DNA of 64,000 nt, from contig JBECUI020000025.1 of assembly GCA_040954595.2 (NCBI GenBank), positions 372,001-436,000 on the forward strand. Reading direction: 5' to 3'. Every line of letters starts with the position of its first letter. Positions within the stretch are counted from its first letter, which is position 1. This document shows, piece by piece, positions 29,071 to 45,780 of the stretch. A program made the position numbers and the translations under genes. The DNA comes from Balanoglossus misakiensis (lineage: Eukaryota > Animalia > Hemichordata). The notes beneath the pieces were generated by a model. It searched no databases. It was not told the DNA's origin and saw nothing but the letters and a program-made list of their open reading frames with translations.

Positions 29071-30681
29071 ATGGAAATATCTACATTACAAAAAGCACGA
29101 TATTCGTACATGCCGGAAAAACCAACAAATATTTTGGCACCGGTCGGAGAGTTAATCGTACAAACACTGCATAAAACAAAGACCTTGAAAGATGTACGGG
29201 AATTCTTTGAACATGTTCCCGCCGATCAACAAGTCGTTACCATTGCACCGGGCAGAAATGCCGCTGCAGAGAACCCAAGAAATATTGGCATTATTTTATC
29301 GGGCGGACAGGCACCGGGGGGACATAATGTTATCTGCGGACTCTTTGATGCACTAAAAGGGGCAAACCCATCCTCTACCCTTATTGGTTTTTTGAATGGA
29401 CCAAGCGGGCTTATTGATGATACAAGTTGTATTATTACCGAAGAAATGGTACAGCAGTACCGGAACACCGGTGGCTTCAATATGATTGGGTCGGGACGGA
29501 CCAAGGTTGAACTCCCCGAACAGTTTGAAGCTGCTTTGAACACTGCACAAAAACATAAGATTGATGCTCTTGTTATTGTTGGTGGTGATGATAGCAATAC
29601 CAATGCCCTCATGTTAGACGAGTACTTTCGTGCACACAATGCAAATCTGCAGGTTATCGGGGTCCCCAAAACCATAGACGGAGATCTTCAGAGTAAGTAC
29701 ATCGACTGTTCCTTCGGGTTTGATACCGCAACAAAGGTCTATTCCGAACTGATCGGCAATATTGCGCAAGATGCCATGAGTGCACAAAAGTACTGGCATT
29801 TTATTCGGCTTATGGGTCGTTCAGCGAGTCATATTGCATTAGAATGTGCCCTCCGAACACAACCGAATATTTGCATTATATCAGAAGAGGTTACCGCAAA
29901 AAAGAAAACCCTCAATTCTATTGTAAAAGAGATCGCTCATACAATTATGTCTCGTGCAGAGCGGAAAGAGAATTTCGGAATTGTCTTGCTCCCCGAGGGA
30001 CTGATAGAATTTATTCCTGAAATAAAGACCCTGATTGAAGAAATTAATCAGCTTCTGGTAGAAGGAGTATCTGCTCACCCAGACACTATTTCAAAAAATC
30101 TCCGTTCAGATAATAGAACTCTCTTTCGGCAGCTACCTGAAGAAATTCGGCATCAGTTGTTATTCGATCGCGACCCCCATGGCAACGTACAGGTATCCCG
30201 CATTGAAACGGAGAAACTGATTCTCCACATGCTCACAGCCTATCTTGAGGAGCAAAAAACAAATGGAAACTATCACGGCAATTTTTCTTCGCAATGCCAT
30301 TTCTTCGGCTACGAAGGTCGTGCCGCATTTCCCAGTAATTTTGATGCAGACTACTGTTATGCACTGGGACAGACTACCTTTTTGTTGATAGCCAACAAAC
30401 TGAGTGGATACATTGCAACAATCTTTAATCTTGCACAAGAAAAGAAAGAATGGGAAGCTGGGGGTGTTCCCTTGCTCTCTATGATCAATTTAGAAAAGCG
30501 TCACGGTGCTATGAAGCCGGTTATTAAGAAAACACTGGTAGATATGCGCGGAAAAGCCTTTTATAGATTCTCAGAACAACGCGAACACTGGGCACAGCAT
30601 ACCTGTTATCTTTCACCAGGTCCAATACAGTACTTCGGACCTCCCGAAGTTACCCATACTTGCCCGACCTCAATCCAGTAG
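29071..30681 (+). CDS. pfp: Pyrophosphate-dependent phosphofructokinase
   Basis: SGGQAPGGHNV, GGDDSNTNA (PPi-type Asp), PKTIDGD, RLMGRSASH; AAGGAG RBS. Confidence 0.96.
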   Translation: MEISTLQKARYSYMPEKPTNILAPVGELIVQTLHKTKTLKDVREFFEHVPADQQVVTIAPGRNAAAENPRNIGIILSGGQAPGGHNVICGLFDALKGANPSSTLIGFLNGPSGLIDDTSCIITEEMVQQYRNTGGFNMIGSGRTKVELPEQFEAALNTAQKHKIDALVIVGGDDSNTNALMLDEYFRAHNANLQVIGVPKTIDGDLQSKYIDCSFGFDTATKVYSELIGNIAQDAMSAQKYWHFIRLMGRSASHIALECALRTQPNICIISEEVTAKKKTLNSIVKEIAHTIMSRAERKENFGIVLLPEGLIEFIPEIKTLIEEINQLLVEGVSAHPDTISKNLRSDNRTLFRQLPEEIRHQLLFDRDPHGNVQVSRIETEKLILHMLTAYLEEQKTNGNYHGNFSSQCHFFGYEGRAAFPSNFDADYCYALGQTTFLLIANKLSGYIATIFNLAQEKKEWEAGGVPLLSMINLEKRHGAMKPVIKKTLVDMRGKAFYRFSEQREHWAQHTCYLSPGPIQYFGPPEVTHTCPTSIQ

Positions 30682-31474
30682 ACTTAGAACGCCCGTAGCT
30701 ACGAGGCAGTGGATTTTTGGACCAAACAAAAAAGTTCGCAATAAACATAAAGAGAAACAAAAAAAGACCCGGGAAAACTATAAGCCAGGGTGCCGTATAG
30801 ATATACCGTTGTGCATCACGCAACAAAATGCCGATGCTTGCCTCTGGTGGTTGAATTCCTATGCCCAGAAAAGATAAGGATGCCTCCAGTCCCACTATAA
30901 TCGCAATAAATGATATGGACTGCTCTATGAGTTGGGGGAAGATGCTCGGCAGTAAATGTCTCATAAACAAGCCCGAGGCGGGCACAGCAAAGGAACGACA
31001 GGCAAGTATGTACTCTTCTTTCATTAAGATTCTCATCTCATCACGCAGGAGCCTTCCGAAAATAGGTGAGAGGAGAAACGATAAGGTAATCAGCAGTTGA
31101 ATCTTCCCACTGCCAAAACTCGCCGCCATAATGAGAGCAAAGAGCACTGTGGGAATGGTAAGCATAATGTGAAGGAGGGCATCAACAATCCGGGAGAGTG
31201 CAGGCAGGAATACAATAATTAAGGCAAGGGTAGTTCCAATACAGAGAGCTAATGCCAGCGATTGGAATGCAAGCATAATACTGGTGCGTAATCCCGTCAG
31301 AATACGCAGGAATAGATCCCTTCCAAACTCGTCGGTTCCCAACCAGTGTTGGCTTGTCGGCGACATGAGACGAAAATTAAGATTATGGCCTTGTGTCTGA
31401 ACAGGAATAAAAAACAGACTAATAACAAACAGAAAAAAGAATATCTGCTTACGGAGCAAGAATGTTGGTCTCAC
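30650..31474 (-). CDS. Dpp/Opp-family ABC permease (DppC-like)
   Basis: HWLGTDEFGRD, EEYILACRSF EAA loop, EASLSFLGIG. Confidence 0.9.
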   Translation of the reverse strand: MRPTFLLRKQIFFFLFVISLFFIPVQTQGHNLNFRLMSPTSQHWLGTDEFGRDLFLRILTGLRTSIMLAFQSLALALCIGTTLALIIVFLPALSRIVDALLHIMLTIPTVLFALIMAASFGSGKIQLLITLSFLLSPIFGRLLRDEMRILMKEEYILACRSFAVPASGLFMRHLLPSIFPQLIEQSISFIAIIVGLEASLSFLGIGIQPPEASIGILLRDAQRYIYTAPWLIVFPGLFLFLFMFIANFFVWSKNPLPRSYGRSKSTGLRSGKYG

Positions 31475-32927
31475 TAAAGTCGTAAGTATCTAAGGTTGTA
31501 TCAACCTGAAACCCACGAACTCCCTTCTGTAAAGCAATGTACCGATACGGAGTACCAATAAAAACAAAGGGACGCTCACGTGCCATAAGGGATAATAACT
31601 GCTCATAGAGTTCTCCCCTCTTCTGAACATCAAATTCAGTACGGGCAAGATCAATTAATTGAACTGCATCTTCATTTATCCATCCAACATAGGTAGCATC
31701 GCTACCGTAACCGAACAAGCGTCCATGCGGGTCCAACTTCCCAGTATGCCCGATAACCGTTAAGTCAAACTGAAATTGTCGGTAGACAGTCGATAACCAA
31801 GCCGACCATTCCAATAACTCAATCTTGGTTTCCAGACCTGCCTTTGCAAGCATATCCTGATATAACTCTGCAGCCTTCCGGTGAGGATCAAAATTTTGTG
31901 GAACAGAAATAATCAGTGGACGGGCAGGCTTTTTGCGCAAAAAAACCTCCGCAGCAAACGCAGGATCATAATGATGTTCATCATTCATATCTACGTAATA
32001 CTGGTTGGCCGGATCCATAAAACTTCCCACTACCGTTCCCCCACCGTAAGCAATATCCAGGACTGCTTCTTTATCAATGGCGGCATCAATGGCAGTCCTG
32101 AATTCAAGGTCATCTAGTGGTGATCTTCGGTTATTCAGTGCAATAACCAATACTAATGATGAAGATGATCGCTGTATATCAACCGATGAGATCTTTTGTA
32201 GCCGACTCAATTCCGGGTCAACAACCAGATCTATCCCCTGTATCGTCCCATCAATAAGTGCCTGTGTGCGCAGAGTCGGTTCCGTTAGAATATCAAAGCT
32301 GATTCCTTGAATATACGGAAGATCCGGATTCCGGTAATCCACATTTCTTTCAAGTTCAACTGCAATGCCCCTCTTCCATTGAAGAAATCGAAATGGGCCT
32401 GTGCCCACCGGATGCTGTGCAAACTCATGTTCGGCATCAATTAAATCGGAAGGAAGAATTGCCGACCATCCCGAGGCTAATATAGCAAGAAAGGGTACAA
32501 ACGGTTCTTTGAGATGTATTTCAAGATTGTAATCATCAACAATGACAATCTCGTCAATGACCTCATACTCAAACGCATGGGGAGACGCAAAATCAGGATT
32601 ACGTAAGCGATCCAGGCTTGCTTGTACATCAACGGATTGAAGCAACTTGCCATGATGAAAGCGGATATCCTTACGTAGCTGTATGCGAATAGTTTGCCGG
32701 TCGGCATCAATCTGCTCAGCCAAGGTAAGAATAAGTTTGCCCTGTTTCCCTATCCGAAACAAGGTGTCATACACGTTTCCAACAACCTGAAAAGTAATGG
32801 TACCTGTTGTTGCATGGGGGTCAAGGGTATCCGGTTCGCCCGACAGAGCAAAATGAAACGTATCACTTTGTTCTACAACACAGGACACAAGCATAGCTGA
32901 TAAAAAAAAGATAATTCCATATTTCAT
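31449..32927 (-). CDS. Family-5 (Dpp/Opp) substrate-binding lipoprotein
   Basis: Lipobox LVSC, PDTLDP, IRFHHG, PVGTGPF. Confidence 0.9.
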   Translation of the reverse strand: MKYGIIFFLSAMLVSCVVEQSDTFHFALSGEPDTLDPHATTGTITFQVVGNVYDTLFRIGKQGKLILTLAEQIDADRQTIRIQLRKDIRFHHGKLLQSVDVQASLDRLRNPDFASPHAFEYEVIDEIVIVDDYNLEIHLKEPFVPFLAILASGWSAILPSDLIDAEHEFAQHPVGTGPFRFLQWKRGIAVELERNVDYRNPDLPYIQGISFDILTEPTLRTQALIDGTIQGIDLVVDPELSRLQKISSVDIQRSSSSLVLVIALNNRRSPLDDLEFRTAIDAAIDKEAVLDIAYGGGTVVGSFMDPANQYYVDMNDEHHYDPAFAAEVFLRKKPARPLIISVPQNFDPHRKAAELYQDMLAKAGLETKIELLEWSAWLSTVYRQFQFDLTVIGHTGKLDPHGRLFGYGSDATYVGWINEDAVQLIDLARTEFDVQKRGELYEQLLSLMARERPFVFIGTPYRYIALQKGVRGFQVDTTLDTYDFSETNILAP

Positions 32928-32936
32928 AAGTGTTTA

Positions 32937-33881
32937 CTATATAATATTCTTCACAGCTGATTTCGTCAATCTTGGACGTAAGCGCGGATGAATAAGATGA
33001 AGAAGAGTGTCTGCAAGGTTCATACAGAGAATGAACAATGCCGCAAAGAAAAGAACCGATGCCTGTACTAAGGGATAATCGCGGTTAAAAATTGATTGCA
33101 ACAGAATGCGTCCGAGTCCCGGAAGGGAGAAAATAACTTCAATAATAATATTTCCCCCAAGAAGATAGCCAAACTGTATCGCTGCGATATGTATGAAAGA
33201 CACAAATGCGTTTGGACCGGCGGAGTGGAAGAGCAAGTAAGAGAAGGGAAAGCCGCAGGCACGAGCAAAGAGAATGTACGGCATTTCCAGCTCCCTTGTC
33301 AATGATAGACGCAGATGGCGAATTAACAGGGGGCTATTGACCAATACCAGACTGATAACCGGAAGAATATAGTATTGTCCACCATCAGCGCCATAGGCAG
33401 GTAGAAGATTCAACTGGACCGAAAAGAGAATTATAAGAAACAGCGCTATCCAAAACTGTGGGACAGAGAGAAATACAACCTCTATAACTCGTACGATCTG
33501 CAAAAAAAAAGATGAACAGGTCGCAAGAAATGCCACCAGTATGGAAAAACAAACGCTTATCAAAAATGCCAGAGAAGCTAGGAGAAGGGTAAAGGGAAAG
33601 CGCTCAGCAATTAATTGTAGCACCGAGACATTATGAACAAGTGAAACTCCGAAGTTTCCGGACAAAATATCACTTATCCAGCTAAGATATTGCTCCCATA
33701 TCGGTCTGTTTGTACCGAGTTTCTCCTGCATGCGTTCAACTGATGCTTGGTCCGCATCTATGCCCGCCATACGAATTGCCGGGTCCCCGGGGAGAATACG
33801 CATGACAAAAAATATAAAGCTAACAAGAAAAAAAAGAGTAAGTAATAGTTTGAGAAGCTGTGCAAAGAGAAGTCGAGACAT
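32937..33881 (-). CDS. Dpp/Opp-family ABC permease (DppB-like)
   Basis: ILPGDPA, GNFGVS, EVIFSLPGLG, NRDYPLVQ. ATG 33881 sits 4 nt after the racemase stop. Confidence 0.9.
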   Translation of the reverse strand: MSRLLFAQLLKLLLTLFFLVSFIFFVMRILPGDPAIRMAGIDADQASVERMQEKLGTNRPIWEQYLSWISDILSGNFGVSLVHNVSVLQLIAERFPFTLLLASLAFLISVCFSILVAFLATCSSFFLQIVRVIEVVFLSVPQFWIALFLIILFSVQLNLLPAYGADGGQYYILPVISLVLVNSPLLIRHLRLSLTRELEMPYILFARACGFPFSYLLFHSAGPNAFVSFIHIAAIQFGYLLGGNIIIEVIFSLPGLGRILLQSIFNRDYPLVQASVLFFAALFILCMNLADTLLHLIHPRLRPRLTKSAVKNII

Positions 33882-33885
33882 GCCC

Positions 33886-34644
33886 TTATTCTCGTATGCG
33901 TTCCGGATATATTTCCCGCAAAAGTGTACGCGCAACAATATTTAACGGATCAATACAAGGCACAGGAAGATTGAGGGGAACAAGAGATAGCTCTGTACAT
34001 CCCAATATTATTCCCTCTGCACCCATGCGAATAAGATCGAGAGACTGAGCTGTAAGAGCATCTATAACCCGTTGGTCTATCGGACGAGGACATTGTTTGA
34101 TTCCCCATTCCGGGTGATAAATAGCATTATGTACCTCATTACGTTTTTCTTCTGTCTCAGGTAAAAGCATAGTGAGATCGGGTGCAAGCTCAGCTGCAGC
34201 CTGTGCATGTATCCGGGAAAAATAACTTCCTTGTGTTGCAAGTAAGCCAATTTTCTTTTTCTCCGGATACGTTTCAAGGATATACCTGAAGGTTTCACGA
34301 AGAAAATGGAGTATGCGAATGTTATAGTGACGTCTCCTTATCCCTTCCAGTACTGGAAGAAAGATTTTCGGGGCATGAAAAGTAATACAAGGCACAGCAC
34401 ATATATGTAGGTTTAATAATTCAAGTTGTCCGATGGCATCCAGTATAGCATCTATAGGATTGGGTTCCGAATCCGGGTGCAAAAGATAACTACTCCTGTC
34501 AGGAATTTGTGGCAGATTGAGCAAGACGAAGGGAACATGATCTTGCTCTTTTATTGACTTGGTGTTTTGAAGGAGCAACTCCACAAAGCGTAAACTTGCA
34601 TACGGTCCTACTCCTCCTAGAATCCCTATCTTGGCATTTGTCAT
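33886..34644 (-). CDS. PLP-independent aspartate/glutamate-family amino-acid racemase
   Basis: IGILGGVGPYAS, PDRS and two catalytic Cys motifs PCITFH and GCTEL. ATG overlaps the upstream stop (ATGA). Confidence 0.9.
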   Translation of the reverse strand: MTNAKIGILGGVGPYASLRFVELLLQNTKSIKEQDHVPFVLLNLPQIPDRSSYLLHPDSEPNPIDAILDAIGQLELLNLHICAVPCITFHAPKIFLPVLEGIRRRHYNIRILHFLRETFRYILETYPEKKKIGLLATQGSYFSRIHAQAAAELAPDLTMLLPETEEKRNEVHNAIYHPEWGIKQCPRPIDQRVIDALTAQSLDLIRMGAEGIILGCTELSLVPLNLPVPCIDPLNIVARTLLREIYPERIRE

Positions 34645-37600
34645 TTTTCTCGGAACATAACAACCCCATCCCAATCACTGGGAGGAGGACTCTGATAAAA
34701 GTTATAACAACGAAGATACATGAGTTTGGCGCATAAATCATGTTTACGCATATTGTAGGCACGTGCAAAGTAATGAACTGCCTTACTCCATTCCCGCTCC
34801 TGATAATAGCGTGCGCCTAATTTATACAAAGACAAGAATGACTGCAATTCCGACATGGGTTCGCCACTTTTCTGTAAGAGATCCAGTCGACCCTTTTCCC
34901 CAAGCACCTCATATATCCGTATCCCTTCTATCTTACCCTTTACTGCAACATGATCAAGGAAACGAACTTCAAATGAATCACCAATTTGTTCTAATGTCGT
35001 GTCACTAATAATAATGCCTGTGCCATAGTACTTATTCAGGTTTTCTAGTCTACTCGTCATATTAACGACATCGCCGATAGCAGTATAGTTTAATCGCTTA
35101 CTGGAACCAACATTCCCAACAACAGCAATTCCGGTATGGATCCCGATACGAGTAAAAAACATATCATCCAACCCGTTCTTGCGCAACTCGCATTGGAACT
35201 GTACCGCTGCATGGCAAGCATGCCGCGCATGATTCTTGAGAGCTCCTGGAGCACCCCAGAATGCCATAATAGCATCTCCGATATACTTATCGATTGTTGC
35301 ATGCGATTGCAAAAGAAGAGTGCTAAATAAATCGAAGTAGACCTCTAATTTTTCAAGCAATTCCTCAGGCGGTAACTGCTCGCTGAGGGTAGTGAAATTC
35401 CGAATATCGGAGAACATGAGTGTTATTTCTTGCCGATCCCCGCCAATTTCAGGTGAACCCTGTAACTTTATCAGACGTGTAACAAGATCTGCCGGAACAT
35501 ATTTTTTGAAAGAAATAAGCCCGTTTAACATACTATCGAAAGCAATATTCATATTCCGAATTTCTACAATGCGCGAAGGAGTACGCTGACTAACCGATTC
35601 CAACTGTAAATCACGGACTTCTTCCATTTCCATTGCAAGCTGGACAATGGGATCTGAAATTTTTGATGCAATGGTCGACCCGATAAGTCCGACAACAATA
35701 ATCAGGAATAACGCGAAGATAATAAGAACGTTGTTATTCTGACTAACACCACCCATAAAGTCATTAACATTCAGTATCAGACAAAGTTGCCAGTTAATTC
35801 CTTCATCGGGCGATAAGTCTCGAACGGTGATAAGATAATCTTCGTTTTCGTACTTGAACCCATAGGTCTCCAACAATCGGGAATCTGTCCAAAGTTGCCC
35901 TAAGAGAAAGAGGAAAAAGCTAAAGAGTGGGTCGCTTGTCTTTGCTATCGTAGCATTATTCGTGTAGGCTTCATAGGCAAGACTGTAATAGGGAGAAACG
36001 GTTGTCTCTATAGATATACGTTGCACCTCTTCATCCGCAGTTACCGGCAGGTACAGATCGTTTGCCGCACGATTGGCTGGTTCAGAAATTGCTACTAACT
36101 CTTTGCTCCCTTTCTCCATAACAAAGGCATGCCCATTTTCGCCAAGATCCAATTCATATAGGAAGTTGGAGAAATCCCGCAACCCAACATCAATACCGAA
36201 AACACCAAGTAAGATGCCCTGTTGATCGTATACCGGCAAAGCAACGGTCAACCCGAGTTGATTATCCGATGCAAAGACATATATGTCACTCCATACAGAA
36301 GAATCACTATTTTCAGCCGCCTGATACCACACACGCTTCCGGGGATCATATCCTGTTTCAATCGGCGACCTTGTGTTCGAAAACGTTGTGTTATAATCTG
36401 CGTTCTCATGAACCCATTCCCGAACTATCTCATTACCACGTGGATCAATGTAACGAATGCTTAAACTATCGTCCTGCATACGCTTTACCATCCGGTGTGT
36501 TCCGCTATTGGAACCGTAGTATAGAGCTTCAAACTCGATATGCCCTTCCATAATTCGCTGCATAAATGAAAGCAGCTCTTCATCAGTTTCAAACATCCCC
36601 CGCTCTTTTATCATGACATCCATATCATGCAGAGTCTGTACGGGACGATCAAGATATGCATCAATACTGTCGGCGGCATTCTGTGTTAAGGTGTGAAGGA
36701 ATGTATCAGCTAAGTCATACAGAGACACCTTACTTCCCGTATAGGCAATAACATTACTTAAAAGACCATACATAATAATAAGCATAGTTGTTAAGATAAC
36801 AATGCTCAGTCGGAAGGGAATAGCAAGAAACCTGGCCCTCTGTGCAACTCGTTTCGGCAACACTTTATCTTCTTTTCTTGGCTCTGCTTCTCCAGAAACT
36901 TCTGTTGTAGCAAATAAAGTCTCTGTATCTTGTACTGTTGTAACTTGCTGTTCGACCGGGTCTTTGGCGGATTGTTCGGAGGCTTGAATCCCTGCAGCTT
37001 CTTCAATAATCAGTTCTTCGTCTACAGGTTCAAGCGATTCTTCCTCCGCTGGTGGTACTGCTCCCTGTAGGACGGGCTCCGTTTCTCGTACCATGGGAAT
37101 AGCCGGAAGCGGCTCTTCTGCCGGCTCCATTGCTTGATCAGCAGTCGTAAGTTCTTCTTCATCTCTAAACAGCTTGGAGTCCGGTATCTGGGTGGGTTCT
37201 ACAAAGGACTCAAGAGTAATATCGCCAATATCTACATCTTCTTCGATCACCAGAGTTGTATCTTCTACTTCCCGCTGCACAGTAGGAAGAACAGTAGCGG
37301 TAATAAAAATGTTCATAATTACCGAATACAGAATCTGCAGTGGACGCACCAACTGAATAACAATGAACCAGAACCCTCCGGTAAAATACGAAACTATCCC
37401 AACCTGTGCAAGCATAGAATAAAATATTTCACCGTTGTCAGTCGCACTCGTAGTCGTACTAAAAGCCATTCCTCCAGTTACCGATAGAAGAAATGAGGTA
37501 GAGAATATTGTCAGCATAGTATAGGAAGTTATGGGAATATCGCTAATAGATAGTGCAAGAAAGGCAAAGATATTAAGAAATAAGAAATATCCGAGGTTTC

Positions 37601-38597
37601 CTAAAGAGAAAATAACGGGAATAATTGTACCTGAATTTTTATAATCTGCCGGGTCATCTAAAGCTTTTCCGATTGTAAAAACACGCAAAGCCTCGGGTAA
37701 TGCAATAATGTGGTTATTTGCTGAGATCGCAAGAAAGGCCGGATATAATACCTGTCTGCAAGCATGAAAAAAGTTACACCGCCGCCGAATGGTAAATACT
37801 ATAATGCTAACCGCAGTCCCGATTATAAAGACCCCGGTGAAAACCATCATCAATAGTAATACCGGTCGGACAAAGGAAAAATCACTCTTATACACGTATT
37901 CGGCTGTTAGTATTAAGACCATAAAAGGCAAAAAATACAAGAGCCAGTGAAATATCTTCTGAAAAGACATGTGCAGACTGTTTATCAGACTGGAAAGAAC
38001 TCCGACAAATTCATGCTTAAGAATACTCAATACCAATCCAAGCAGAACTGCAAAAAACAAAAGTGCAGGTATTTGCACGAGAATCAAAGATTGAAAAACA
38101 TTATTTGGTATTATTGATAAGAAAAAACGTTGAACAACATTCACCGCTTCCGTTTGGTCCCCATTTCGAATATCAAGTGGAATATTGTGTTCAACAATAT
38201 TTTCTTGAGTTCCGACAATGTAAGAAATATCCTCGTTATTCAGAGGATAAACATTCGACACCACAACGTACAACAAAAACGCAAGTGCCATTGAGACAAT
38301 TAAAGTCGGCAAGACAACAATAATAAGTTTGGCGAGTATGCGCAGTAATCGTTTTGCCCGAGCGAGTATCGAAACCGAGAATGTCAAAGAAAATACTAAA
38401 ATCGGGACAACTGTAAGAGCTAGCAATAAAAAGTAGAAACGGACAAACAGTGGTGCAAGTGCCAAGAATCCATCAATGTTTACTAGATTCTGGATCCCCA
38501 ATAGACCACCAAGCAGAAAGGCTATAAGAAGCATCCAACTGCTTAATAAGAAAGAAGTGAGGGTAGAATGCTTACTTTTAACGCTTGTTGTATTCAG
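34641..38597 (-). CDS. Fusion protein: DAACS (GltP-like) domain - acidic linker - TM - dCache - TM - HAMP - class III adenylate cyclase
   Basis: N-terminal ~430 aa with DAACS hallmarks (IIPNNVF, LLFFAVLLGLVL). dCache motif YDPRKRVWY. Cyclase motifs FSDIRNFT, DKYIGDAIMAFW, RIGIHTG, YTAIGDVVNMTSRLE and a WDGV tail. The frame is open upstream of ATG 38534 to a CTG at 38597 preceded by GGGGG. Confidence 0.88.
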   Translation of the reverse strand: MNTTSVKSKHSTLTSFLLSSWMLLIAFLLGGLLGIQNLVNIDGFLALAPLFVRFYFLLLALTVVPILVFSLTFSVSILARAKRLLRILAKLIIVVLPTLIVSMALAFLLYVVVSNVYPLNNEDISYIVGTQENIVEHNIPLDIRNGDQTEAVNVVQRFFLSIIPNNVFQSLILVQIPALLFFAVLLGLVLSILKHEFVGVLSSLINSLHMSFQKIFHWLLYFLPFMVLILTAEYVYKSDFSFVRPVLLLMMVFTGVFIIGTAVSIIVFTIRRRCNFFHACRQVLYPAFLAISANNHIIALPEALRVFTIGKALDDPADYKNSGTIIPVIFSLGNLGYFLFLNIFAFLALSISDIPITSYTMLTIFSTSFLLSVTGGMAFSTTTSATDNGEIFYSMLAQVGIVSYFTGGFWFIVIQLVRPLQILYSVIMNIFITATVLPTVQREVEDTTLVIEEDVDIGDITLESFVEPTQIPDSKLFRDEEELTTADQAMEPAEEPLPAIPMVRETEPVLQGAVPPAEEESLEPVDEELIIEEAAGIQASEQSAKDPVEQQVTTVQDTETLFATTEVSGEAEPRKEDKVLPKRVAQRARFLAIPFRLSIVILTTMLIIMYGLLSNVIAYTGSKVSLYDLADTFLHTLTQNAADSIDAYLDRPVQTLHDMDVMIKERGMFETDEELLSFMQRIMEGHIEFEALYYGSNSGTHRMVKRMQDDSLSIRYIDPRGNEIVREWVHENADYNTTFSNTRSPIETGYDPRKRVWYQAAENSDSSVWSDIYVFASDNQLGLTVALPVYDQQGILLGVFGIDVGLRDFSNFLYELDLGENGHAFVMEKGSKELVAISEPANRAANDLYLPVTADEEVQRISIETTVSPYYSLAYEAYTNNATIAKTSDPLFSFFLFLLGQLWTDSRLLETYGFKYENEDYLITVRDLSPDEGINWQLCLILNVNDFMGGVSQNNNVLIIFALFLIIVVGLIGSTIASKISDPIVQLAMEMEEVRDLQLESVSQRTPSRIVEIRNMNIAFDSMLNGLISFKKYVPADLVTRLIKLQGSPEIGGDRQEITLMFSDIRNFTTLSEQLPPEELLEKLEVYFDLFSTLLLQSHATIDKYIGDAIMAFWGAPGALKNHARHACHAAVQFQCELRKNGLDDMFFTRIGIHTGIAVVGNVGSSKRLNYTAIGDVVNMTSRLENLNKYYGTGIIISDTTLEQIGDSFEVRFLDHVAVKGKIEGIRIYEVLGEKGRLDLLQKSGEPMSELQSFLSLYKLGARYYQEREWSKAVHYFARAYNMRKHDLCAKLMYLRCYNFYQSPPPSDWDGVVMFREK

Positions 38598-38608
38598 TGT
38601 ATCCCCCG

Positions 38609-39421
38609 CTATTCTGCAAAAATATCAGGAAACTCATCTAGCAGGGTATCTGCTGTATACGATAAATTGAGTGAAGCTAGATAGCGATCGACCCAGTAGA
38701 CAAGCTGTGGATTATTCCACCGCATGGCAATGGCTATATCATCACGGGTGTCTGTTAACAATATCGTTTTTAACCGTAATGATGCGTTCGGATTTGCCTT
38801 GATAATTTTCTTAATTTCCAACTCATCACGATATGCTGCCAAAACCTTGCCGCTGTAAACTGCTTCAATAACCTCTTCCCATGTAGGAAATTCGACTACC
38901 TCTGCAGAAGGGAAATTCCGCCGAGCATATGTTGCATACGAAGAATTAGCAACGACCCCTATTGAACCACGAAAGTTACGAACAAATGCTGGTAACTGAT
39001 CTTCGGGAATAAACTCTGCTAAACGAAGACGATTAACAATAAGTGCCTGCCGAAAAGTAATATAGGGGTTGCTGTATTGAACAAGTTGCGCCCGTTTCAA
39101 GGTCAAGCTCAACTTCGAAATAACCATGTCGGCCTGACGATTGGCAACAATTGTTACCAGGTCATTAAAACTCTGTGCATCTCTATTAAATTCCAGTTCC
39201 ACACCCAATGTTTCTGCTATGCCTTGAGCTAATTGAACATCCAAGCCATCAAGTCTTCCTTCTTTATTAGTATAGAAAAAAGGTGGCTGTTCACGAGAAT
39301 GCAGTGCCACAACAAGTTTATTGCGTGCCAATATTTCTCCGATTCCCGGAGAGAAATCTTGTGCGGTAACTAATAGGGTAACAAACAATAGACAGACGAT
39401 AATAAATGTATTACGTATCAT
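38609..39421 (-). CDS. Family-3 (polar amino acid) solute-binding protein
   Basis: Signal peptide, QPPFF, GLDVQLAQGIA, ADMVISKLSLTLKRAQLVQYSNPY. Confidence 0.9.
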   Translation of the reverse strand: MIRNTFIIVCLLFVTLLVTAQDFSPGIGEILARNKLVVALHSREQPPFFYTNKEGRLDGLDVQLAQGIAETLGVELEFNRDAQSFNDLVTIVANRQADMVISKLSLTLKRAQLVQYSNPYITFRQALIVNRLRLAEFIPEDQLPAFVRNFRGSIGVVANSSYATYARRNFPSAEVVEFPTWEEVIEAVYSGKVLAAYRDELEIKKIIKANPNASLRLKTILLTDTRDDIAIAMRWNNPQLVYWVDRYLASLNLSYTADTLLDEFPDIFAE

Positions 39422-40827
39422 ACCATAGTACCTGCTTTCTTTAGTTTACTTACTCGATCTATAACTTCTTGTTGTGCCTGCGCACCTTCTCCACTGGGGC
39501 CTGTCTGCGGTGCTGAAGATTCCGGAGGTCCTGCCTCACTTGCACGAGGAGCTACCAGTGATACAAGCACCAGGTTCGGCTGTGTAATGAGTAATGTTCG
39601 CATGGGATCAATAATTGGATCAATAGAATAGAGTACGATCAGTATCGCCTCACTCGGCAAACCAAGCAGATCAACTAACAAAATAGAGATCATCCCGAGG
39701 GTTGCAAACCCAGTTGACCCAGCGGTTGCCGTTCCGGCAACTACTGCACCAAAAACAATAAGAAGAATCTGTGACAGGGTAAAGGTTATTTCGTAGATCT
39801 GTCCGACATAGACAGCACAAAGTGCGAAGTAAAGAATATTTCCAAATCGACAAAGGGTAATGCTCAGCGGCACAATAAGACTGGTAACAACTCGTTCACA
39901 TCCAAGCTGATCTCGCAAAGCCTCAATTCCTAATGGAATAGTAGCAATGCTGTTTCTCGTTGAGAAGGAAACAATAAGTGGCTGTACCAATGCTTTAACA
40001 ACATAAAAAATATTGCGTTTCGTCCGAATGCTGATGACTATAAAAGATACCACCACAAAGAACACACCAATACCGTAAAATGTCAATAATAACTGCAATG
40101 ATGCAACAAGACTCAGTACTCCCGTATCTTTTACCTGTTTAGCAACTAATACGAATAGACCTATGGGTAATGGATACATTGCCCAGTCAACAATACGTTG
40201 AAAGGCAACAAAGGTGCTGGACATAAAGGATATGAGCAAATCGCCTTGTTGCCGTTGTACAAGAGCAATAGCAACTCCAAAAAGGATACAGAAAAAGACC
40301 AATTCAAGAGTACGCCCCAATGCTAGCGATTCAAAAACATTAGATGGAATAAGCAGATTAAGAAAGCGATAGACCCAACCACTGGAATTGCCAAGGGTAT
40401 TACCCCCTGTCGTCTGAATACCGTCCGCCGTGTCCATGGAACTATTTAATGCAATGCCTAAATCGGTTTCATACGGAGATAACTCAATAATTTGTCCAAT
40501 CGCATCCTGTTGTGTTTCGTTCAAAACACCCGGAGATGTAAGTAATCCAACACCTACTGCTGAAAAACTCGCAATAAACATTATACAAGTAGAATATGTT
40601 ACATAACGTAAAAAGACATTCCCAACATTTGGAGAACGAAACAGTCGGGCAATACTAGATATAATTGCTGAAACTAAAATGGGTATGACACTCATTTCCA
40701 ACAAATTGATGTACAAATCCCCAATAGGGGCAATGAGGTTTACAGTTTCTTTACTTGCAAATAAACCAAACAGTACTCCGCCAACTGCAGATAGAAAAAT
40801 AATCCATGTATTTTTTAATATCTTCAT
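39418..40827 (-). CDS. Dicarboxylate/amino acid:cation symporter (DAACS) family protein with atypical motifs
   Basis: GDLYINLLEMSVIPIL, LIPSNVF, FSTRNSIATIP (HP1), IDPIIDPMRT (TM8). Confidence 0.9.
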   Translation of the reverse strand: MKILKNTWIIFLSAVGGVLFGLFASKETVNLIAPIGDLYINLLEMSVIPILVSAIISSIARLFRSPNVGNVFLRYVTYSTCIMFIASFSAVGVGLLTSPGVLNETQQDAIGQIIELSPYETDLGIALNSSMDTADGIQTTGGNTLGNSSGWVYRFLNLLIPSNVFESLALGRTLELVFFCILFGVAIALVQRQQGDLLISFMSSTFVAFQRIVDWAMYPLPIGLFVLVAKQVKDTGVLSLVASLQLLLTFYGIGVFFVVVSFIVISIRTKRNIFYVVKALVQPLIVSFSTRNSIATIPLGIEALRDQLGCERVVTSLIVPLSITLCRFGNILYFALCAVYVGQIYEITFTLSQILLIVFGAVVAGTATAGSTGFATLGMISILLVDLLGLPSEAILIVLYSIDPIIDPMRTLLITQPNLVLVSLVAPRASEAGPPESSAPQTGPSGEGAQAQQEVIDRVSKLKKAGTMV

Positions 40828-40893
40828 TCCTAACGTCTTCTATGTCGGCATAATAAAGCCGGCTCATTACCCCTTGTGCAAATAAATCGTTCC

Positions 40894-40910
40894 CAAACTT
40901 GCAAAGTTTG
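40894..40910. promoter_or_regulatory. Perfect inverted repeat at the predicted start of the DAACS operon transcript (candidate operator or 5' hairpin)
   Basis: CAAACTT-GCA-AAGTTTG. Confidence 0.45.
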
Positions 40911-40919
40911 CACTTTTAC

Positions 40920-40949
40920 AGTATACAATAATGTATAGAACATATACAA
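40920..40949 (-). promoter_or_regulatory. Sigma70-type promoter for the DAACS operon
   Basis: TTGTAT-N18-TATACT on the minus strand. Confidence 0.45.
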
Positions 40950-40953
40950 GAAC

Positions 40954-41072
40954 AAAAAAAGGGGGGACGAGGGTCGTTTCAAATAAATGAAACGACCCAA
41001 GTACAAGGAGGAATAAAGCATTGTGATCACATGCAGATTGTAGAAGGCAATCGAATTTCATCGACTGTCCTT
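40954..41072 (-). ncRNA. Candidate ~120-nt structured small RNA or leader RNA
   Basis: Preceded by TTGACA-N17-TATTGT; 5' hairpin, unpaired CCUCCUU, perfect 11-bp hairpin, then C6-U7. Confidence 0.45.
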
Positions 41073-41078
41073 TAAGTA

Positions 41079-41107
41079 ACAATACTCTTTTATTTCTAAT
41101 ATGTCAA
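41079..41107 (-). promoter_or_regulatory. Sigma70-type promoter driving the candidate sRNA
   Basis: TTGACA (41107-41102)-N17-TATTGT (41084-41079), with an A-rich region upstream. Confidence 0.6.
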
Positions 41108-41172: not shown

Positions 41173-41193
41173 GTTTTGCCCTGGATGAGGAAT

Positions 41194-42606
41194 ATGGAGC
41201 AAAAATTCGACTTTTCTAACATGTCTGGCATGAACATTACCATTATGGGACTCGGTCTTCATAGTGGAGGGCTTGCATCCGCCATGTTTTGCCTGAAACA
41301 GGGTGCAAACGTTACCGTAACCGATTTGCGAAATGAAACAATTCTTGCACCGAGCATTCAAAAACTTTCTCCTTACCAAGTCCAATACGTACTAGGAGAG
41401 CATAGGGAAGCCGACTTTACTAATGCTGACATGGTCATAAAAGGCCCCGGAGTAGCCCGAAATTCCCCCTACCTTGAATATGCGCAGCACATAGAAACCG
41501 ATCTCTCACTTTTTCTTCGTAGCAATACAAACAGGATGGTGGCCATTACCGGAACGAAAGGGAAATCCGTCGCAGCATCCCTCATAGACTATGTTTTGTC
41601 CGCTTCCGGCAAAACAAGTTGGCTTTTGGGAAATATAAGCGCCTCCCCTCTCGATGTTCAAGACAAGATCAAACCCGATGATTGGCTTGTTATGGAACTC
41701 TCCTCATTCCAGCTTGGAGACCTGGCTTGGCTGCAACGGAACAACAAGTCTGCCCCCTTTCGCTTCCAACCTGAAATAAGTTTGATAACAAACATGGGAG
41801 ATGACCACCAAAATTATTATCGTTCGTTTGATGCCTACCGCAGCGACAAACTCTTTCTTGTTGAATCTCAACTGCCGGGCAGCTGGGCGGTTATTCATGA
41901 AGGGCAGCTATGCCGCCCTTTCTTCGAGCATACGCAGGCAAATAAGGCTATATTCGGCATAGGGGATTCATCATTCCCGACACGGGCATGGTACAAAGAC
42001 TCTACGGTGCATATCAGAATTGCAGATGCACACGAACAACAGATCAAGCAGATCGACGAAAGACTCAGCACAGGCATTCGTATGAGTGGCAAGCATTACG
42101 AGAGCATTGCCGGAGTAGCTCTTCTGCTTGCTCTGCTGGAAGTGCCAAAAAACTATATATTTCAGAACATCGCAGAGTTTCCCGGCATTGCTCATCGTCT
42201 GGAATACCTGCGAACACTCAATGGTGTTTCCTACTACAATGATAGTGCTGCCACTATTCCGGAAGCAGTCCTTGCCGCGGTCGATGCCTTCCACGAACCA
42301 ATCCACCTCATAACAGGAGGAACCGATAAGAACACTGATATTCAACCATTTGCCGGACTTGTCGACAAGGTGGCTAGTGTTACCCTGCTGAAAGGAAATA
42401 TGAGTATCCGCTTGCAAGAGTTCCTTGCGGATAAAGGAATAGAAATACAGGGAATCGATGATATGCACTCTGCTGTCATGAGAGCTAAAAAACTGGCAGC
42501 TCCCGGCGAGATAGTCCTACTTTCCCCCGGTGCCGCATCCTTTGAACTCTTTGTCCATGCCTACGAACGCGGAAATTCTTTTAAGAAGATCGTTATGAAC
42601 CTATGA
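41194..42606 (+). CDS. murD: UDP-N-acetylmuramoyl-L-alanine--D-glutamate ligase
   Basis: MGLGLHSGG, ITGTKGKS, ELSSFQL, HRLE, YNDSAAT, LLSPGAASF. Confidence 0.95.
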   Translation: MEQKFDFSNMSGMNITIMGLGLHSGGLASAMFCLKQGANVTVTDLRNETILAPSIQKLSPYQVQYVLGEHREADFTNADMVIKGPGVARNSPYLEYAQHIETDLSLFLRSNTNRMVAITGTKGKSVAASLIDYVLSASGKTSWLLGNISASPLDVQDKIKPDDWLVMELSSFQLGDLAWLQRNNKSAPFRFQPEISLITNMGDDHQNYYRSFDAYRSDKLFLVESQLPGSWAVIHEGQLCRPFFEHTQANKAIFGIGDSSFPTRAWYKDSTVHIRIADAHEQQIKQIDERLSTGIRMSGKHYESIAGVALLLALLEVPKNYIFQNIAEFPGIAHRLEYLRTLNGVSYYNDSAATIPEAVLAAVDAFHEPIHLITGGTDKNTDIQPFAGLVDKVASVTLLKGNMSIRLQEFLADKGIEIQGIDDMHSAVMRAKKLAAPGEIVLLSPGAASFELFVHAYERGNSFKKIVMNL

Positions 42607-43641
42607 TCTTAGCCGTCTCATAGTCCGTTTGAGAGGCTTCGTCATTGCTTGGAGACCTTCCAGTGTTATGGCAGGGTGATACCAAAGCTTTCGTAACGCA
42701 ATATCCCAACAGCCAAGTCGATGGAGCATTCTCCCGCCAAAGCCGCACTTAAACCGGTAGAGACCATGCAAAGCATGCCCTGGATCGGCAGATGGGGCAA
42801 TGCCGAATAAATCATACACCTTCGCACCGGCTTTTCGTGCATTACAAATTGCCTTCCATTGTAATAGATGTGGTGCCATGAGATTCCGCTTTATTCCAGA
42901 TGATGCCCCGTAGAGATAGGTGGCAACAGAGGCATACTGTAAGACAATAATTCCGGCAAGAATGTCATCTTCATGACTCGCCATGTATAATCGAATGCTT
43001 CCCCCACTATCAGACTGCTGCCATTGCTGAAAGATCGTTTGATAATAAGAAAGCCTATGAATGCCCATGCCCTGTCTCCTCTGAGTGCTGAGATACATGG
43101 CATACCAGGACTCAATGTCAGTCGTTTCATATATCTCTACCCCTTTTTTATCCGCTAAACGGATATTGTACCGAGTCTTCTTGCTACATGCCGCCAGGAG
43201 ATCCTCCTCTTTTGCGCTGAGGTCTAAATGGATGGTATCAGGTACCTGCACGGAAACAGGTGCGGGAACAAACCCTGCCTTCCGTAAACTGGGAGGTGGA
43301 CAATGTTCTCTTTCAAAAGGGATATCCCAACGCAGAAGGATTGCAGCAGGAAATGATTTGCGCCCAATCTCATACAGGGTATCCCGAAATGCGCGTAAAA
43401 CCGATGGCTTACATAGTTCGGCATTGTTATCGTACAAGGCATAGGGGGCGTAGATCATGCTGAACCCCCGAATAAGAGAGCGTTCAAGTAAAATAAACAT
43501 GAACTCCTTGCCTTCATGCTCAACCGCAAATGCTTTCACGGTCCAGCCCATCTGCTCTCTTATTGCACCCCATAACGGACTCTGAAGAAAATGATTAGCA
43601 TGTACCTGACTTCGACTGATTGACCGCCAGCAAAGCATCAT
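42601..43641 (-). CDS. FemABX/MurM-family lipid II aminoacyltransferase
   Basis: HFLQSPLWG, KKTRYNIRLA, YLYGASS, LQWKAI, YDLFGI, GLYRFKCGFGG. Confidence 0.9.
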   Translation of the reverse strand: MMLCWRSISRSQVHANHFLQSPLWGAIREQMGWTVKAFAVEHEGKEFMFILLERSLIRGFSMIYAPYALYDNNAELCKPSVLRAFRDTLYEIGRKSFPAAILLRWDIPFEREHCPPPSLRKAGFVPAPVSVQVPDTIHLDLSAKEEDLLAACSKKTRYNIRLADKKGVEIYETTDIESWYAMYLSTQRRQGMGIHRLSYYQTIFQQWQQSDSGGSIRLYMASHEDDILAGIIVLQYASVATYLYGASSGIKRNLMAPHLLQWKAICNARKAGAKVYDLFGIAPSADPGHALHGLYRFKCGFGGRMLHRLGCWDIALRKLWYHPAITLEGLQAMTKPLKRTMRRLRS

Positions 43642-43643
43642 GC

Positions 43644-45780
43644 TTACTCGACGCCGCAGTCTTGTAATCGGCTAGCCACAATGGGTTTGTTGTTGCATAG
43701 AATGGGGGTTCCGTCTACTGTTAATTGCCCATCGCCGTTTAACCGAAGTGCGAAGGAACGAAATTCATTAATAGATAAGGTATTTGGAGAAGCGTCCTCC
43801 TGACCCTCAACCCTGAGAACCTCACCAGCCGGGAAGTCATCAAGAAAAAGCACTTCAAGATCATCGTGCTTATGTGCTGCAAGGAGCATGCCGTTGCTCT
43901 GTATGCCACGTAGTTTTGCCGGTTGTAGATTGCCAACAAGAATGATGGTATGACCAAGGAGCTCTTCTGGGGTGTAGTAGCCTACCAGTCCGGAAACGAT
44001 GGTCCGCTCTTCGCCGATGTCCAAGGTTAAAACATAGAGTTTGTCTGCATTGGGATGTGGCTCTGCTGATACAATGACTGCGGTCAAGAGTGATACCTTC
44101 CGATTAAACTCGGCTGGTATGTCTCGTTCGACAAGCGTCTGCTCGCCGGAAAACTGCGTAGATAAACGCCTTATCTGTTTGTCATCAAGATATGTAAAAA
44201 GTTTTTTCGGGCGATTGACAGTGTGTATACCGGAATACTTGCCTAACTGATCCCATGATAACTCAGAAAGGTTGAGAAATCCTGCTATCGTGGCGGCGGT
44301 ATCCGGTAAAAAGGGCTCAATTAAAATTGCAAGGTCGCGAACGAGATAAACTAACATGGAAATAAAATGATGTGCCTTCTTCAAATCGGTTTTAATGAGC
44401 ATCCATGGTTCACGATGCTGAAATAAGCGATTGATGTAGTGACACACGTCAAATATTTCGCGAAAGGCGGTGCGTAAAGAAGTATTTCTCCATGGCGTTT
44501 TCAATCGCCTGGTACCGTTTAAGAAGTTCTTGCTGAACATCTTCCTCCGGTTCGACAGTAGTTACCTGACCGTCAAAAGATCGAAGTGAAAAACTGAGTA
44601 CCCGATTGACGAGATTGGAAAAGTTTCCAATGAGCTCGGTATTGGTCATTTGCTGAAAATCTAACCATGAAAAATTGTAGTCCGCATTCTCCGGTCGATT
44701 GTACATAAGGTAAAAGCGCCAGATAGCAGCAGGAATACCGCTCTCTTTGGCATCATCTGCAAAAATACCGAGTCCCCTGCTCTTCGAGAAGACCTTGCCC
44801 TCGTAGTTCATGTACTCAGTCGAAGAAATGCTATGTAATTTAGTCCATGCATGAACACTGTTTTGCAGGATTGCAGGAAATAATACTGTGTGAAAAAAAA
44901 TGTTATCCTTGCCGACAAACTGAAATAACTCAACCTTATCCGGTGCTTGCCACCAATCCTTCCACTTATCCGTATAGGCGGCTGTTATGGAAATGTATCC
45001 AATGGGGGCATCGAACCATACATAAAAAACCTTGGAGGTATACCCCTCCTTCGGTACTGGGATTCCCCACTTTAGATCGCGCGTAATAGCACGTGGCTTC
45101 AATCCTTCCTTGAGCAAGGCCTGCGTTTGTTTCTGCGCATTCCGAGACCAATGTCCCCCCTCTATCGATGCGGTAACCCATGTTAACAGCTTGTCGGTTA
45201 TGGCAGGTAAATCAAAATATAAATGACTCGTCGACCGAAGCACCGGTTTGGACTTGTCCAATGCACTGCGGGCATCTATAAGTTCGGTTGGCTCAAGAAG
45301 TTTCCCACACTGTTCACATTGATCTCCGCGTGCTTGCTCATAAGCACAATAAGGACAGGTGCCCACAATGTATCGATCCGCAAGAAAGCGCTTCGCTGTT
45401 TCGGAATAGAACTGCTCGTTCTTTTTCTCAAATAAAAATCCCTGCTCGTCCAGTTCCCGAAATAACCCTTGGGTAATGTCGGTATGGATTGATTCGGAGG
45501 TGCGACCGAAATGAGTAAAGCCAATTTGAAACCAGCGATATAGATCGGCATGAATCGCATAGTACTTGTCGCATAACTCCTTTGGAGTAACATTATCAAG
45601 GTATGCCTTCGTTTCCGTCGCAGTTCCATACTCGTCAGTGCCACAAATATATAGCGTTTCGTACCCGCGCAACCGACAGTAACGGGCAAAAACATCGGCA
45701 GACAATACCTGTATCAGGTTTCCAAGGTGGGGAATATTATTAACATAGGGTAATGCTGATGTTATGAGTCGTCGTTTCAT
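43644..45780 (-). CDS. metG: Methionyl-tRNA synthetase with a C-terminal tRNA-binding domain; one frameshift at ~44486 (probable sequencing error)
   Basis: TSALPYVNNIPHLGN, Zn knuckle, YVWFDA, FSKS in ORF 44449-45780; anticodon domain and HPNADKL/Trbp111-type domain in ORF 43644-44540. Confidence 0.93.

Follow-up and report, generated by a model that had tools for sequence, protein, structure and literature searches.

A 64,000-nucleotide stretch of the Balanoglossus misakiensis assembly GCA_040954595.2 (contig JBECUI020000025.1, positions 372,001 to 436,000), here called the window and numbered from its first letter, carries four co-directional genes that follow each other head to tail, all on the minus strand. 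They encode a permease of the DAACS family, a substrate-binding protein (SBP), a long fusion protein in which a DAACS-like domain is joined to a class III nucleotide cyclase with a periplasmic sensor, and a racemase. The operon is a spirochaete one. Its four genes are as follows.

39418-40827, minus strand: free DAACS permease, 469 aa, with a match to the SDF profile.
38609-39421, minus strand: binding protein of the SBP_bac_3 family, 270 aa; signal-like segment at the N-terminus.
34641-38534, minus strand: SDF-linker-dCache-cyclase fusion, 1297 aa counted from the ATG at 38534.
33886-34674, minus strand: open reading frame (ORF) of the racemase; 33886-34644 from the in-frame ATG at 34644, giving 252 aa.

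The genes are tightly coupled, as an initial interpretation made from the letters of the window (hereafter the sequence-only reading) had claimed. One ATGA overlap (39418-39421) unites the stop of the DAACS gene with the start of the SBP gene, and a second (34641-34644) unites the stop of the fusion with the in-frame ATG of the racemase. The stop codon of the SBP gene (TAG, 38611-38609) is followed by 11 nt and then by an in-frame CTG (38597-38595), a candidate start of the fusion. In P0005, a relative with 54-60% identity, the protein starts at the position equivalent to the ATG at 38534, and in the metagenome locus L097 the fused gene starts 3 nt past its SBP stop. The choice between CTG 38597 and ATG 38534 affects no other result.

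The sequence-only reading had also described the fusion as a single uninterrupted ORF, and this was confirmed over all 1297 codons. A contig from run X1, which is possibly the source sample, runs unbroken across 33800-41000 and differs from the window there by 4 substitutions and 0 indels. Among the 120 long homologues listed, 32 protein clusters have both PF00375 and PF00211 within a single chain (their sources label four of these Treponema sp. or Spirochaetaceae), and the metagenome loci contributed 11 full-length fused ORFs and one that runs off its contig. Given a contig without indels and an architecture common to 32 clusters, the fusion is, on this sequence evidence, real and not an assembly artefact. 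A collection of 15 billion proteins contained no exact copy of the window's proteins, and P0005 is a singleton there. The fusion protein can be divided into the following parts, from the N- to the C-terminus.

37275-38534, minus strand: pseudo-DAACS domain, residues 1-420; SDF match of 90 bits, fold from AlphaFold2 (AF2) and Foldseek.
36837-37274, minus strand: linker, residues 421-566; acidic, proline-rich, poorly conserved and of varying length among relatives.
36741-36836, minus strand: first transmembrane (TM) helix of the sensor, residues 567-598; from a hydrophobicity scan, aligned with the TM helix of all family members.
35751-36740, minus strand: periplasmic dCache_1 domain, residues 599-928; 52.2 bits against a cut-off of 45.
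35652-35750, minus strand: second TM helix of the sensor, residues 929-961; from a hydrophobicity scan.
35475-35651, minus strand: HAMP-like segment; sub-threshold profile match.
34920-35474, minus strand: catalytic domain of a class III nucleotide cyclase, of adenylate type (K, T); Guanylate_cyc match of 81.8 bits.
34644-34919, minus strand: conserved C-terminal tail, weakly TPR-like and ending in PPxxWxGV; TPR_2 match of 18.8 bits, below its cut-off.

Of the four Pfam domains that had been expected in this one chain, SDF, dCache_1 and Guanylate_cyc were found, whereas HAMP stayed below threshold. The segment at the expected place matches positions 2-51 of the 53 in the HAMP profile (PF00672), its score being 13 bits (E 0.13) and the cut-off 25; precomputed PF00672 matches exist for some relatives.

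The SDF match of the fusion extends over residues 2-352 and profile positions 5-328 of 387 (cut-off 27.9). This domain had been taken for a full-length GltP-like domain, a description that does not hold, as the motifs of helical hairpin 1 (HP1), TM7, HP2 and TM8 are all lost. GNLGY stands at the site of the family motif NMDGT, and ANNH in HP1 and RPLQI in TM8 stand at the substrate sites. The substrate residues R276 and S278 together with D394, R397 and T398 are retained by the free DAACS of the window and not by the fused domain. In an alignment of 45 SDF sequences, 32 of them fused and 13 free or otherwise arranged, all four motif blocks are kept in 43 and are lost only in the window protein and P0005; the substrate-binding motifs are thus kept by 30 of the 32 fused chains. 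The fused domain of L097, whose contig has the same gene order and flanks as the window, likewise lacks the motifs and is 22% identical to the window domain. An intact free DAACS gene lies upstream of the SBP gene in both degenerate cases of known context (the window and L097). Because all four motifs are gone, the fused protein cannot be a transporting receptor. Judged by its sequence, the fused domain is a pseudo-transporter, and the label of 'transceptor' which the sequence-only reading had given to the window protein has to be withdrawn, since no substrate-binding transporter domain is left.

Sequence comparison of the window protein with P0005 revealed 43% identity over the SDF portion and 61% over the sensor and cyclase, while the two portions are about equally identical in seven other fused pairs. 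Judging from these identities, evolution of the window protein is faster in its fused domain than elsewhere. The divergence of this domain is uneven. Between the window and P0005, identity is 58-73% in blocks 31-60, 271-330 and 391-420, and as the former HP1/TM7 and TM8 blocks reach 58-63% between the two proteins, the degenerate domain is maintained. Against intact DAACS, its similarity is highest in the N-terminal blocks (0.27-0.40) and lowest at residues 211-330 (0.10-0.13), which is the most conserved region of the intact members. With blocks assigned provisionally to helices, this pattern would fit a retained scaffold part and a remodelled transport core. The AF2 model of the domain has a pLDDT of 76.2 and a pTM of 0.75. 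A Foldseek search with this model yielded 128 PDB matches at E<=1e-3, led by EAAT3, ASCT2, GltPh and GltTk. The TMq values were mostly 0.54-0.65 for structures in outward or intermediate states and about 0.40-0.46 for those facing inward. By modelling, the window's fused domain is accordingly predicted to keep the glutamate-transporter fold. A search of the ESM Atlas returned generic SDF clusters only.

Beyond the pseudo-DAACS domain, the linker is acidic, as had been noticed at the outset: the 160 residues from 441 to 600 include 32 Asp or Glu, 12 Lys or Arg, and 14 Pro. The pLDDT of the AF2 model falls below 50 from residue 422 to the modelled end at residue 470. A disordered linker of about 145 residues, as modelled, suggests tethering of the two halves and not a rigid mechanical coupling.

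The closest solved relatives of the dCache domain are the amino-acid chemoreceptor domains of PctA, PctB, PctC, Mlp24 and Mlp37. The amino-acid motif of dCache_1AA sensors was defined by Gumerov et al. (PMC8915833), and the window domain has it in full (Y121, R126, W128, Y129, Y144 and D173, aligned to PctA). The motif, YRWYYD, is intact in 43 of 49 aligned related cyclases. As the whole motif is present, the sensor plausibly binds an amino acid by itself, and direct amino-acid binding by the window domain is likely on these residues.

The catalytic domain aligns best, among solved structures, with 2w01, 6fht and CyaB (3r5g). Its six residues D-K-D-T-N-R (two Asp that bind metal, Lys and Thr/Asp that specify the substrate, Asn and Arg of the transition state) are all present in the window protein as in the other aligned related cyclases (49 of 49), so the residues that the sequence-only reading had picked out as kept are indeed kept. 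The window protein has Lys where the solved chain 2w01 has Glu. By its aligned residues, the cyclase is adenylate-type and catalytically intact. Elsewhere, two dCache-cyclase genes of one operon in L082 are separated by four short tandem-like matches to the C-terminal tail of the cyclase (L082:5510-6979); the second of these two cyclases has lost most of the amino-acid motif (LSWYID).

The free DAACS of the window has an SDF (PF00375) match of 229.5 bits against the cut-off of 27.9, and its best solved sequence match is AncInt (PDB 9bgy/9bgz, aligned to 9bgz). It keeps the Arg and Ser of HP1 (TRNS) and the D..D..RT of TM8 (D..DPMRT). In its TM7, CRFGN replaces NMDGT, and N401 and D405 are replaced by Ile and Asn. 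Most relatives of the fusion protein have a fused domain with this same pattern of kept and lost residues. The motif NMDGT has been called 'essentially conserved' in the family, and N310, D312, N401 and D405 (GltPh numbering) contribute to the Na+ sites; the TM8 residues of GltPh and GltTk hold the amino group and the side-chain carboxylate of the substrate (PMC5110648). The free DAACS groups in a tree (17 near-redundant Treponema rows dropped) with the free DAACS of split operons described below. All 57 aligned DAACS encoded directly downstream of SBP genes have x-R-x-G-x, with Arg at the position of M311, and none has NMDGT; all 57 keep D..(D/N)..RT. Since x-R-x-G-x replaces NMDGT, the canonical Na+ sites are gone in SBP-linked DAACS.

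The SBP matches SBP_bac_3 with 78.9 bits and has orthologues of 43-60% identity, which share its N-terminal hydrophobic signal-like segment. It is the best conserved of the four proteins, the median identity to the window protein being 46.7% for the SBP, 34.7% for the cyclase, 33.0% for the DAACS and 30.4% for the racemase. The racemase matches Asp_Glu_race (PF01177) with 72.1 bits and TIGR00035 with 106.2, above the cut-off of 93.1; its score of 126.7 against the CuyB equivalog lies below the cut-off of 190. Both Cys motifs align with those of its best solved relative, aspartate racemase 1jfl, and the two Cys are presumably catalytic. By these matches, it is an aspartate-racemase-like enzyme of the type independent of pyridoxal phosphate.

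We surveyed the neighbourhood of these genes from two sides. From the cyclase side, 80 loci of related dCache-cyclases in species-representative genomes were searched for the partners within 7 kb. All three partners were present in four loci, the racemase alone in one that ends at a contig edge, and none in 75; co-occurrence around dCache-cyclases is thus all-or-none. The four complete loci belong to a Spirochaetaceae metagenome-assembled genome (MAG) (L001), a Treponema sp. MAG (L003), Candidatus Caedibacter acanthamoebae (L016) and an alphaproteobacterial MAG (L029), the last two with gene orders other than the split order of spirochaetes. With a profile of the fusion (E<=1e-100), 59 of 401 Spirochaetota genomes gave matches, mostly to the cyclase part only. 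Among 16 regions around such matches, six have an SBP gene followed by a DAACS gene; in four of the six a separate dCache-cyclase gene comes next, and in three of these four the racemase gene follows. The split order SBP, DAACS, cyclase, racemase is found in the spirochaete genomes G093, G102 and G024, and G050 has the same order with no racemase within its region of 19.5 kb. The G050 locus had been considered a broken gene, given stop codons inside the match, and this was rejected as it is a split operon. Because the split operons share the gene order, the fusion is one state of a unit that also exists in separate pieces. The same four parts, fused or split, recur in Spirochaetota and in two alphaproteobacterial records, hence in two phyla, which supports a functionally linked set and answers the earlier call for a neighbourhood search. 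Two solitary cyclases (G007 and G101) are nested in the fused Treponema clade; they have noncoding DNA upstream, no DAACS domain and no partners nearby.

From the SBP side, 80 metagenome loci with SBP orthologues of 43-57% identity were surveyed. In all 72 loci whose sequence continues for more than 250 bp past the SBP gene, a DAACS gene lies directly downstream; the remaining eight are cut off. The racemase is found in 55 of the 80 loci and a dCache-cyclase in 19 (15 complete, four cut by contig ends), and many SBP loci have a second DAACS and no sensor. The stretches that precede the SBP gene in 14 loci contain 46 ORFs; no BPD_transp_1 permease of the ATP-binding cassette (ABC) type is among them, and the one ATPase is an unrelated MalK-type protein. 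Given the synteny in 72 of 72 loci and the lack of an ABC permease upstream, the constant partner of the SBP is the DAACS without NMDGT and not an ABC system. The conserved core is therefore SBP, DAACS and racemase, to which the dCache sensor is an add-on in some lineages. A quick tree divides the SBP sequences into three clades corresponding to the operon types, and SBPs linked to a cyclase appear at more than one point of it; all trees were quick or FastTree only, and no count of fusion events was drawn from them. This core, the complete amino-acid motif of the dCache domain and the DAACS clade devoid of NMDGT and Na+-site residues go beyond the sequence-only reading.

The loci in which SBP_bac_3 is paired with a DAACS lacking NMDGT come from L097-L176 (metagenome, with the pair in the 72 usable ones), L081-L084, L091 and L092, usually with a racemase and with no ABC genes nearby; by sequence, the pair is a possible class of binding-protein-assisted DAACS transporters. 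The sensors beside the SBP-DAACS core have a cyclase output (fused or split), no output or a PP2C output. Output-less TM-dCache-TM-HAMP proteins of about 485 aa are encoded directly after the DAACS gene in four loci (L106:10163-11611, L113:10089-11543, L120:9600-11111 and L127:9894-11357), and their motif has D173 replaced by Gly and Y121 by Phe. In L114 (10402-12552, minus strand), a dCache-HAMP-SpoIIE (PP2C) gene whose product has the full amino-acid motif is convergent to the SBP-DAACS pair. In L122 (1161-3287), a cyclase-like domain follows an intact DAACS in the same chain, with neither dCache nor TM helices in between; the metal Asp and the transition-state Arg of this domain are replaced, the reverse of the decay seen in the window. 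A 703-aa protein of L001 (6853-8964) combines an intact DAACS with a C-terminal SBP_bac_3-like domain that is 25% identical to the window SBP. It was considered as a Rosetta stone for periplasmic docking and rejected, given the 25% identity and the absence of a TM segment between the two domains, owing to which the SBP-like part would be cytoplasmic. Matches to cNMP-binding domains number 7-10 in each of the four spirochaete genomes searched that carry the module. In L120, a 185-aa cNMP_binding gene (5750-6307) lies directly upstream of a cyclase-less set of racemase, SBP, DAACS and dCache-HAMP genes.

These observations enable us to propose a putative model, on whose side we see the balance of probability, if only slightly. 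The four genes would form a conserved operon in which an amino-acid-sensing dCache class III adenylate cyclase has, as its N-terminal part, a degenerate version of the DAACS encoded nearby, and cAMP synthesis would be coupled to uptake by the SBP, the DAACS and the racemase. The free DAACS, devoid of the canonical Na+ sites, would receive its ligand from the SBP, and both would act with the racemase to take up and interconvert an Asp-like amino acid in its D and L forms. The cyclase would make cAMP upon binding of an extracellular, probably acidic amino acid (Asp-like, D or L) in its own dCache pocket. The pseudo-DAACS domain would serve as the adaptor holding the cyclase next to the functional permease, perhaps through mixed oligomers, so that the state of the transporter could modulate cAMP synthesis. 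The cAMP output would then report the presence of the ligand together with the occupancy of the transporter, reminiscent of DctA for DcuS, and of DctA with DctB for DctS.

Several points weigh against this model. The long linker, disordered as modelled, argues against tight coupling. The DAACS-like domain is not needed for sensing an amino acid, because the dCache domain has the full ligand motif, and the solitary cyclases G007 and G101 indicate that the sensor can work alone. Since DAACS form trimers whereas class III cyclases form dimers, the stoichiometry finds no simple fit. The ligand is called probably Asp-like only from the D..D..RT motif, the similarity of the racemase to aspartate racemase, and analogy. 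The genome of Candidatus Caedibacter acanthamoebae (G003, the genome of L016) gave no cNMP_binding match, despite a split module with an intact cyclase. Finally, the input alignment of the AF2 model is dominated by intact DAACS, and the model is therefore biased to the transporter fold.

An alternative that is unlikely and still has to be taken seriously holds that the fused DAACS-like domain is a leftover membrane anchor, that the protein is an ordinary dCache amino-acid cyclase, and that the operon provides co-expression with neither physical nor regulatory coupling. The complete dCache motif and the long, disordered linker agree with it, as do the solitary cyclases within the fused clade and the 75 of 80 related cyclases that have no partner genes. 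The loss of all transport motifs in a domain that diverges faster than the rest of the protein points the same way. However, a domain of 420 residues and about eight TM helices has been kept in three lineages, and its blocks of 58-73% identity between the window and P0005 exceed the needs of an anchor. Furthermore, fusion, split adjacency and sensors with other outputs all recur beside the same SBP-DAACS core, and the output-less dCache-HAMP proteins among them are able to act through protein contacts only.

Less probable still is that the SBP provides the real signal input. Loaded SBP would dock on the dCache domain, as in LuxP/LuxQ, ScrB/ScrC and DctB/DctS, and switch the cyclase, leaving the DAACS for uptake only. 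Receptors of dCache type stimulated by SBPs are well documented and include one with an SBP_bac_3 partner, ScrB/ScrC (PMC8050422). The conservation of the SBP, the highest of the four parts (median 46.7%), fits several contact surfaces, and the class II dCache-HAMP proteins lack D173 and so may need a protein ligand. Nevertheless, SBP-DAACS pairs with no sensor nearby (the class III SBP loci; L111, L130 and L138) make the DAACS the constant partner of the SBP, and the cyclase-linked dCache domains keep their small-molecule motif. Docking of the SBP is, moreover, compatible with the adaptor model and not exclusive of it.

Control might also run in reverse, the dCache-HAMP sensor gating or tuning the DAACS by contact and the cyclase output being a secondary addition in some lineages. 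The four loci with output-less TM-dCache-TM-HAMP proteins of about 485 aa directly after the DAACS would suit this arrangement, as would the intact DAACS fused to a decayed cyclase-like domain in L122. In the window, however, the six catalytic residues of the cyclase are intact whereas the fused transporter domain has decayed, so selection acts there on cAMP synthesis; we know of no precedent for such gating, and consider it very unlikely. Only the unusual architecture of the fusion would speak for an assembly error or a pseudogene; as far as sequence data go, both can be dismissed in view of 1297 uninterrupted codons, a second assembly with 0 indels, 32 clusters and 11 full-length fused metagenome ORFs.

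The adaptor model has its nearest counterparts in DctA/DcuS of E. coli and DctS/DctA/DctB of B. subtilis, in which a DAACS and a periplasmic sensor of Cache/PAS type, with a binding protein in Bacillus, likewise form a sensory unit. The site at which helix 8b of DctA contacts DcuS adjoins the second TM helix of the sensor, and when DctA is missing, DcuS stays permanently ON (PMC8307970); the tripartite unit of Bacillus includes the binding protein (PMC6978683). In DctA/DcuS it is the C-terminal region of the transporter that contacts the sensor, and the window sensor is attached at exactly the C-terminus of its DAACS domain. The two known systems differ from ours in having a histidine kinase as output in place of a class III adenylate cyclase, and a C4-dicarboxylate as ligand where ours is likely an amino acid. 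Here the partners are covalently fused in many members, and gene linkage is what is shown, a physical complex being putative; the DAACS clade lacks NMDGT, and the fused copy of the window lacks a binding site.

A transporter-family domain and a cytoplasmic signalling enzyme also share one chain in CbrA (SSS and histidine kinase) and Ks-Amt5 (Amt and histidine kinase). In contrast to these, the present fusion has a DAACS domain of elevator type, a cAMP output and a periplasmic sensor domain between both parts. The transceptor label fits its relatives (L003, L101 and others), but not the window protein with its lost substrate site. With PctA, Mlp24/37 and Tlp3 (dCache_1AA), the window sensor shares the dCache_1 fold family and the complete motif, binding being predicted here; it differs from them in its cyclase output and in the added N-terminal DAACS-like domain. 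TRAP and TTT are elevator-type secondary transporters, and their loci, like the window-type ones, where no ABC components are found nearby, place a binding-protein gene beside a secondary-transporter gene. Unlike them, the present proteins show no homology to DctQM/TctAB, the SBP is of family 3, which is typical of ABC systems, and SBP dependence is only a candidate property.

Transporter-sensor fusions (CbrA, Ks-Amt5) and co-sensing by DAACS (DctA/DcuS) are thus already known. In the literature that we searched, with most subscription journals outside its scope, no DAACS-cyclase fusion and no system of PF00375 with PF00211 was found described, in line with the sequence-only reading, which had known of no characterised system of this architecture. 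In a 2021 review on receptors stimulated by SBPs, as available, adenylate cyclases come up in the introduction only (PMC8050422). A 2025 study of prokaryotic glutamate transporters describes an 'uncoupled' intermediate clade (AncInt), whose proteins are devoid of the ion-coupling signature residues and are often encoded near amino-acid enzymes; reconstructed AncInt keeps NMD, whereas the clade described here has an invariant Arg at the position of M311, and 'binding protein', 'periplasmic' and 'racemase' are not mentioned in the main text of that study, as available (PMC12668577).

The role of the large membrane domains found in class III adenylate cyclases is still open; the idea that they are transporters dates from 1989 and was never shown to hold (PMC12414865). 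Cyclases with a fused transporter-family domain that is intact (most), decayed (the window), split or absent provide a natural series for this question. The model would also extend the co-sensing principle of DctA/DcuS from kinases to cAMP and amino acids. The strict pairing of SBP_bac_3 with a DAACS devoid of canonical ion sites suggests binding-protein-assisted secondary transport, which is absent from the available part of a 2018 review that names ABC, TRAP and TTT as the only SBP-dependent transporter families (PMC5812351). The racemase points to the use of D-amino acids by spirochaetes of gut or rumen type and by amoeba symbionts.

A broader proposal is possible, and we offer it tentatively, as something that may well prove wrong. 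SBP-linked DAACS with x-R-x-G-x would be a fourth kind of SBP-dependent transporter, in which the Arg of TM7 takes the place of the Na+ sites, the SBP gives affinity and direction for D- and L-acidic amino acids, and the racemase acts as a sink. Sensors with dCache domains would have been recruited repeatedly to read the state of this transporter. The spirochaete proteins would be true transporter-cyclases, and the fused domain of the window would represent a docking or allosteric end point, in mixed oligomers with the permease.

The gap of 349 nt upstream of the DAACS gene contains one further feature.

41079-41107, minus strand: promoter-like TTGACA-17-TATTGT, matching at 10 of 12 positions.

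A promoter and terminator scan of the locus gave a total of 25 against a shuffle mean of 27.8. As this total does not exceed that of the shuffles, the promoter-like site is weak evidence, and the ends of the operon are not defined by the scan.

Elsewhere in the window, methionyl-tRNA synthetase is encoded on the minus strand at 43644-45780 by two overlapping ORFs, one for the catalytic part (44449-45780) and one for the anticodon-binding and tRNA-binding part (43644-44540); either a split gene or a frameshift could account for this. The operon is surrounded by peptidoglycan genes at 16571-18007, 41176-42606, 42601-43641 and 47843-50469 (three Mur-ligase-type, FemAB-family and Ddl). In L097 (compare L097:1070-2470), synteny extends to the MurD-like neighbour and to the peptide ABC genes downstream (30650-33938), a hint that the latter might belong to the operon. 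The peptidoglycan neighbours and this synteny may reflect a link with D-amino acids or muropeptides, or merely shared ancestry.

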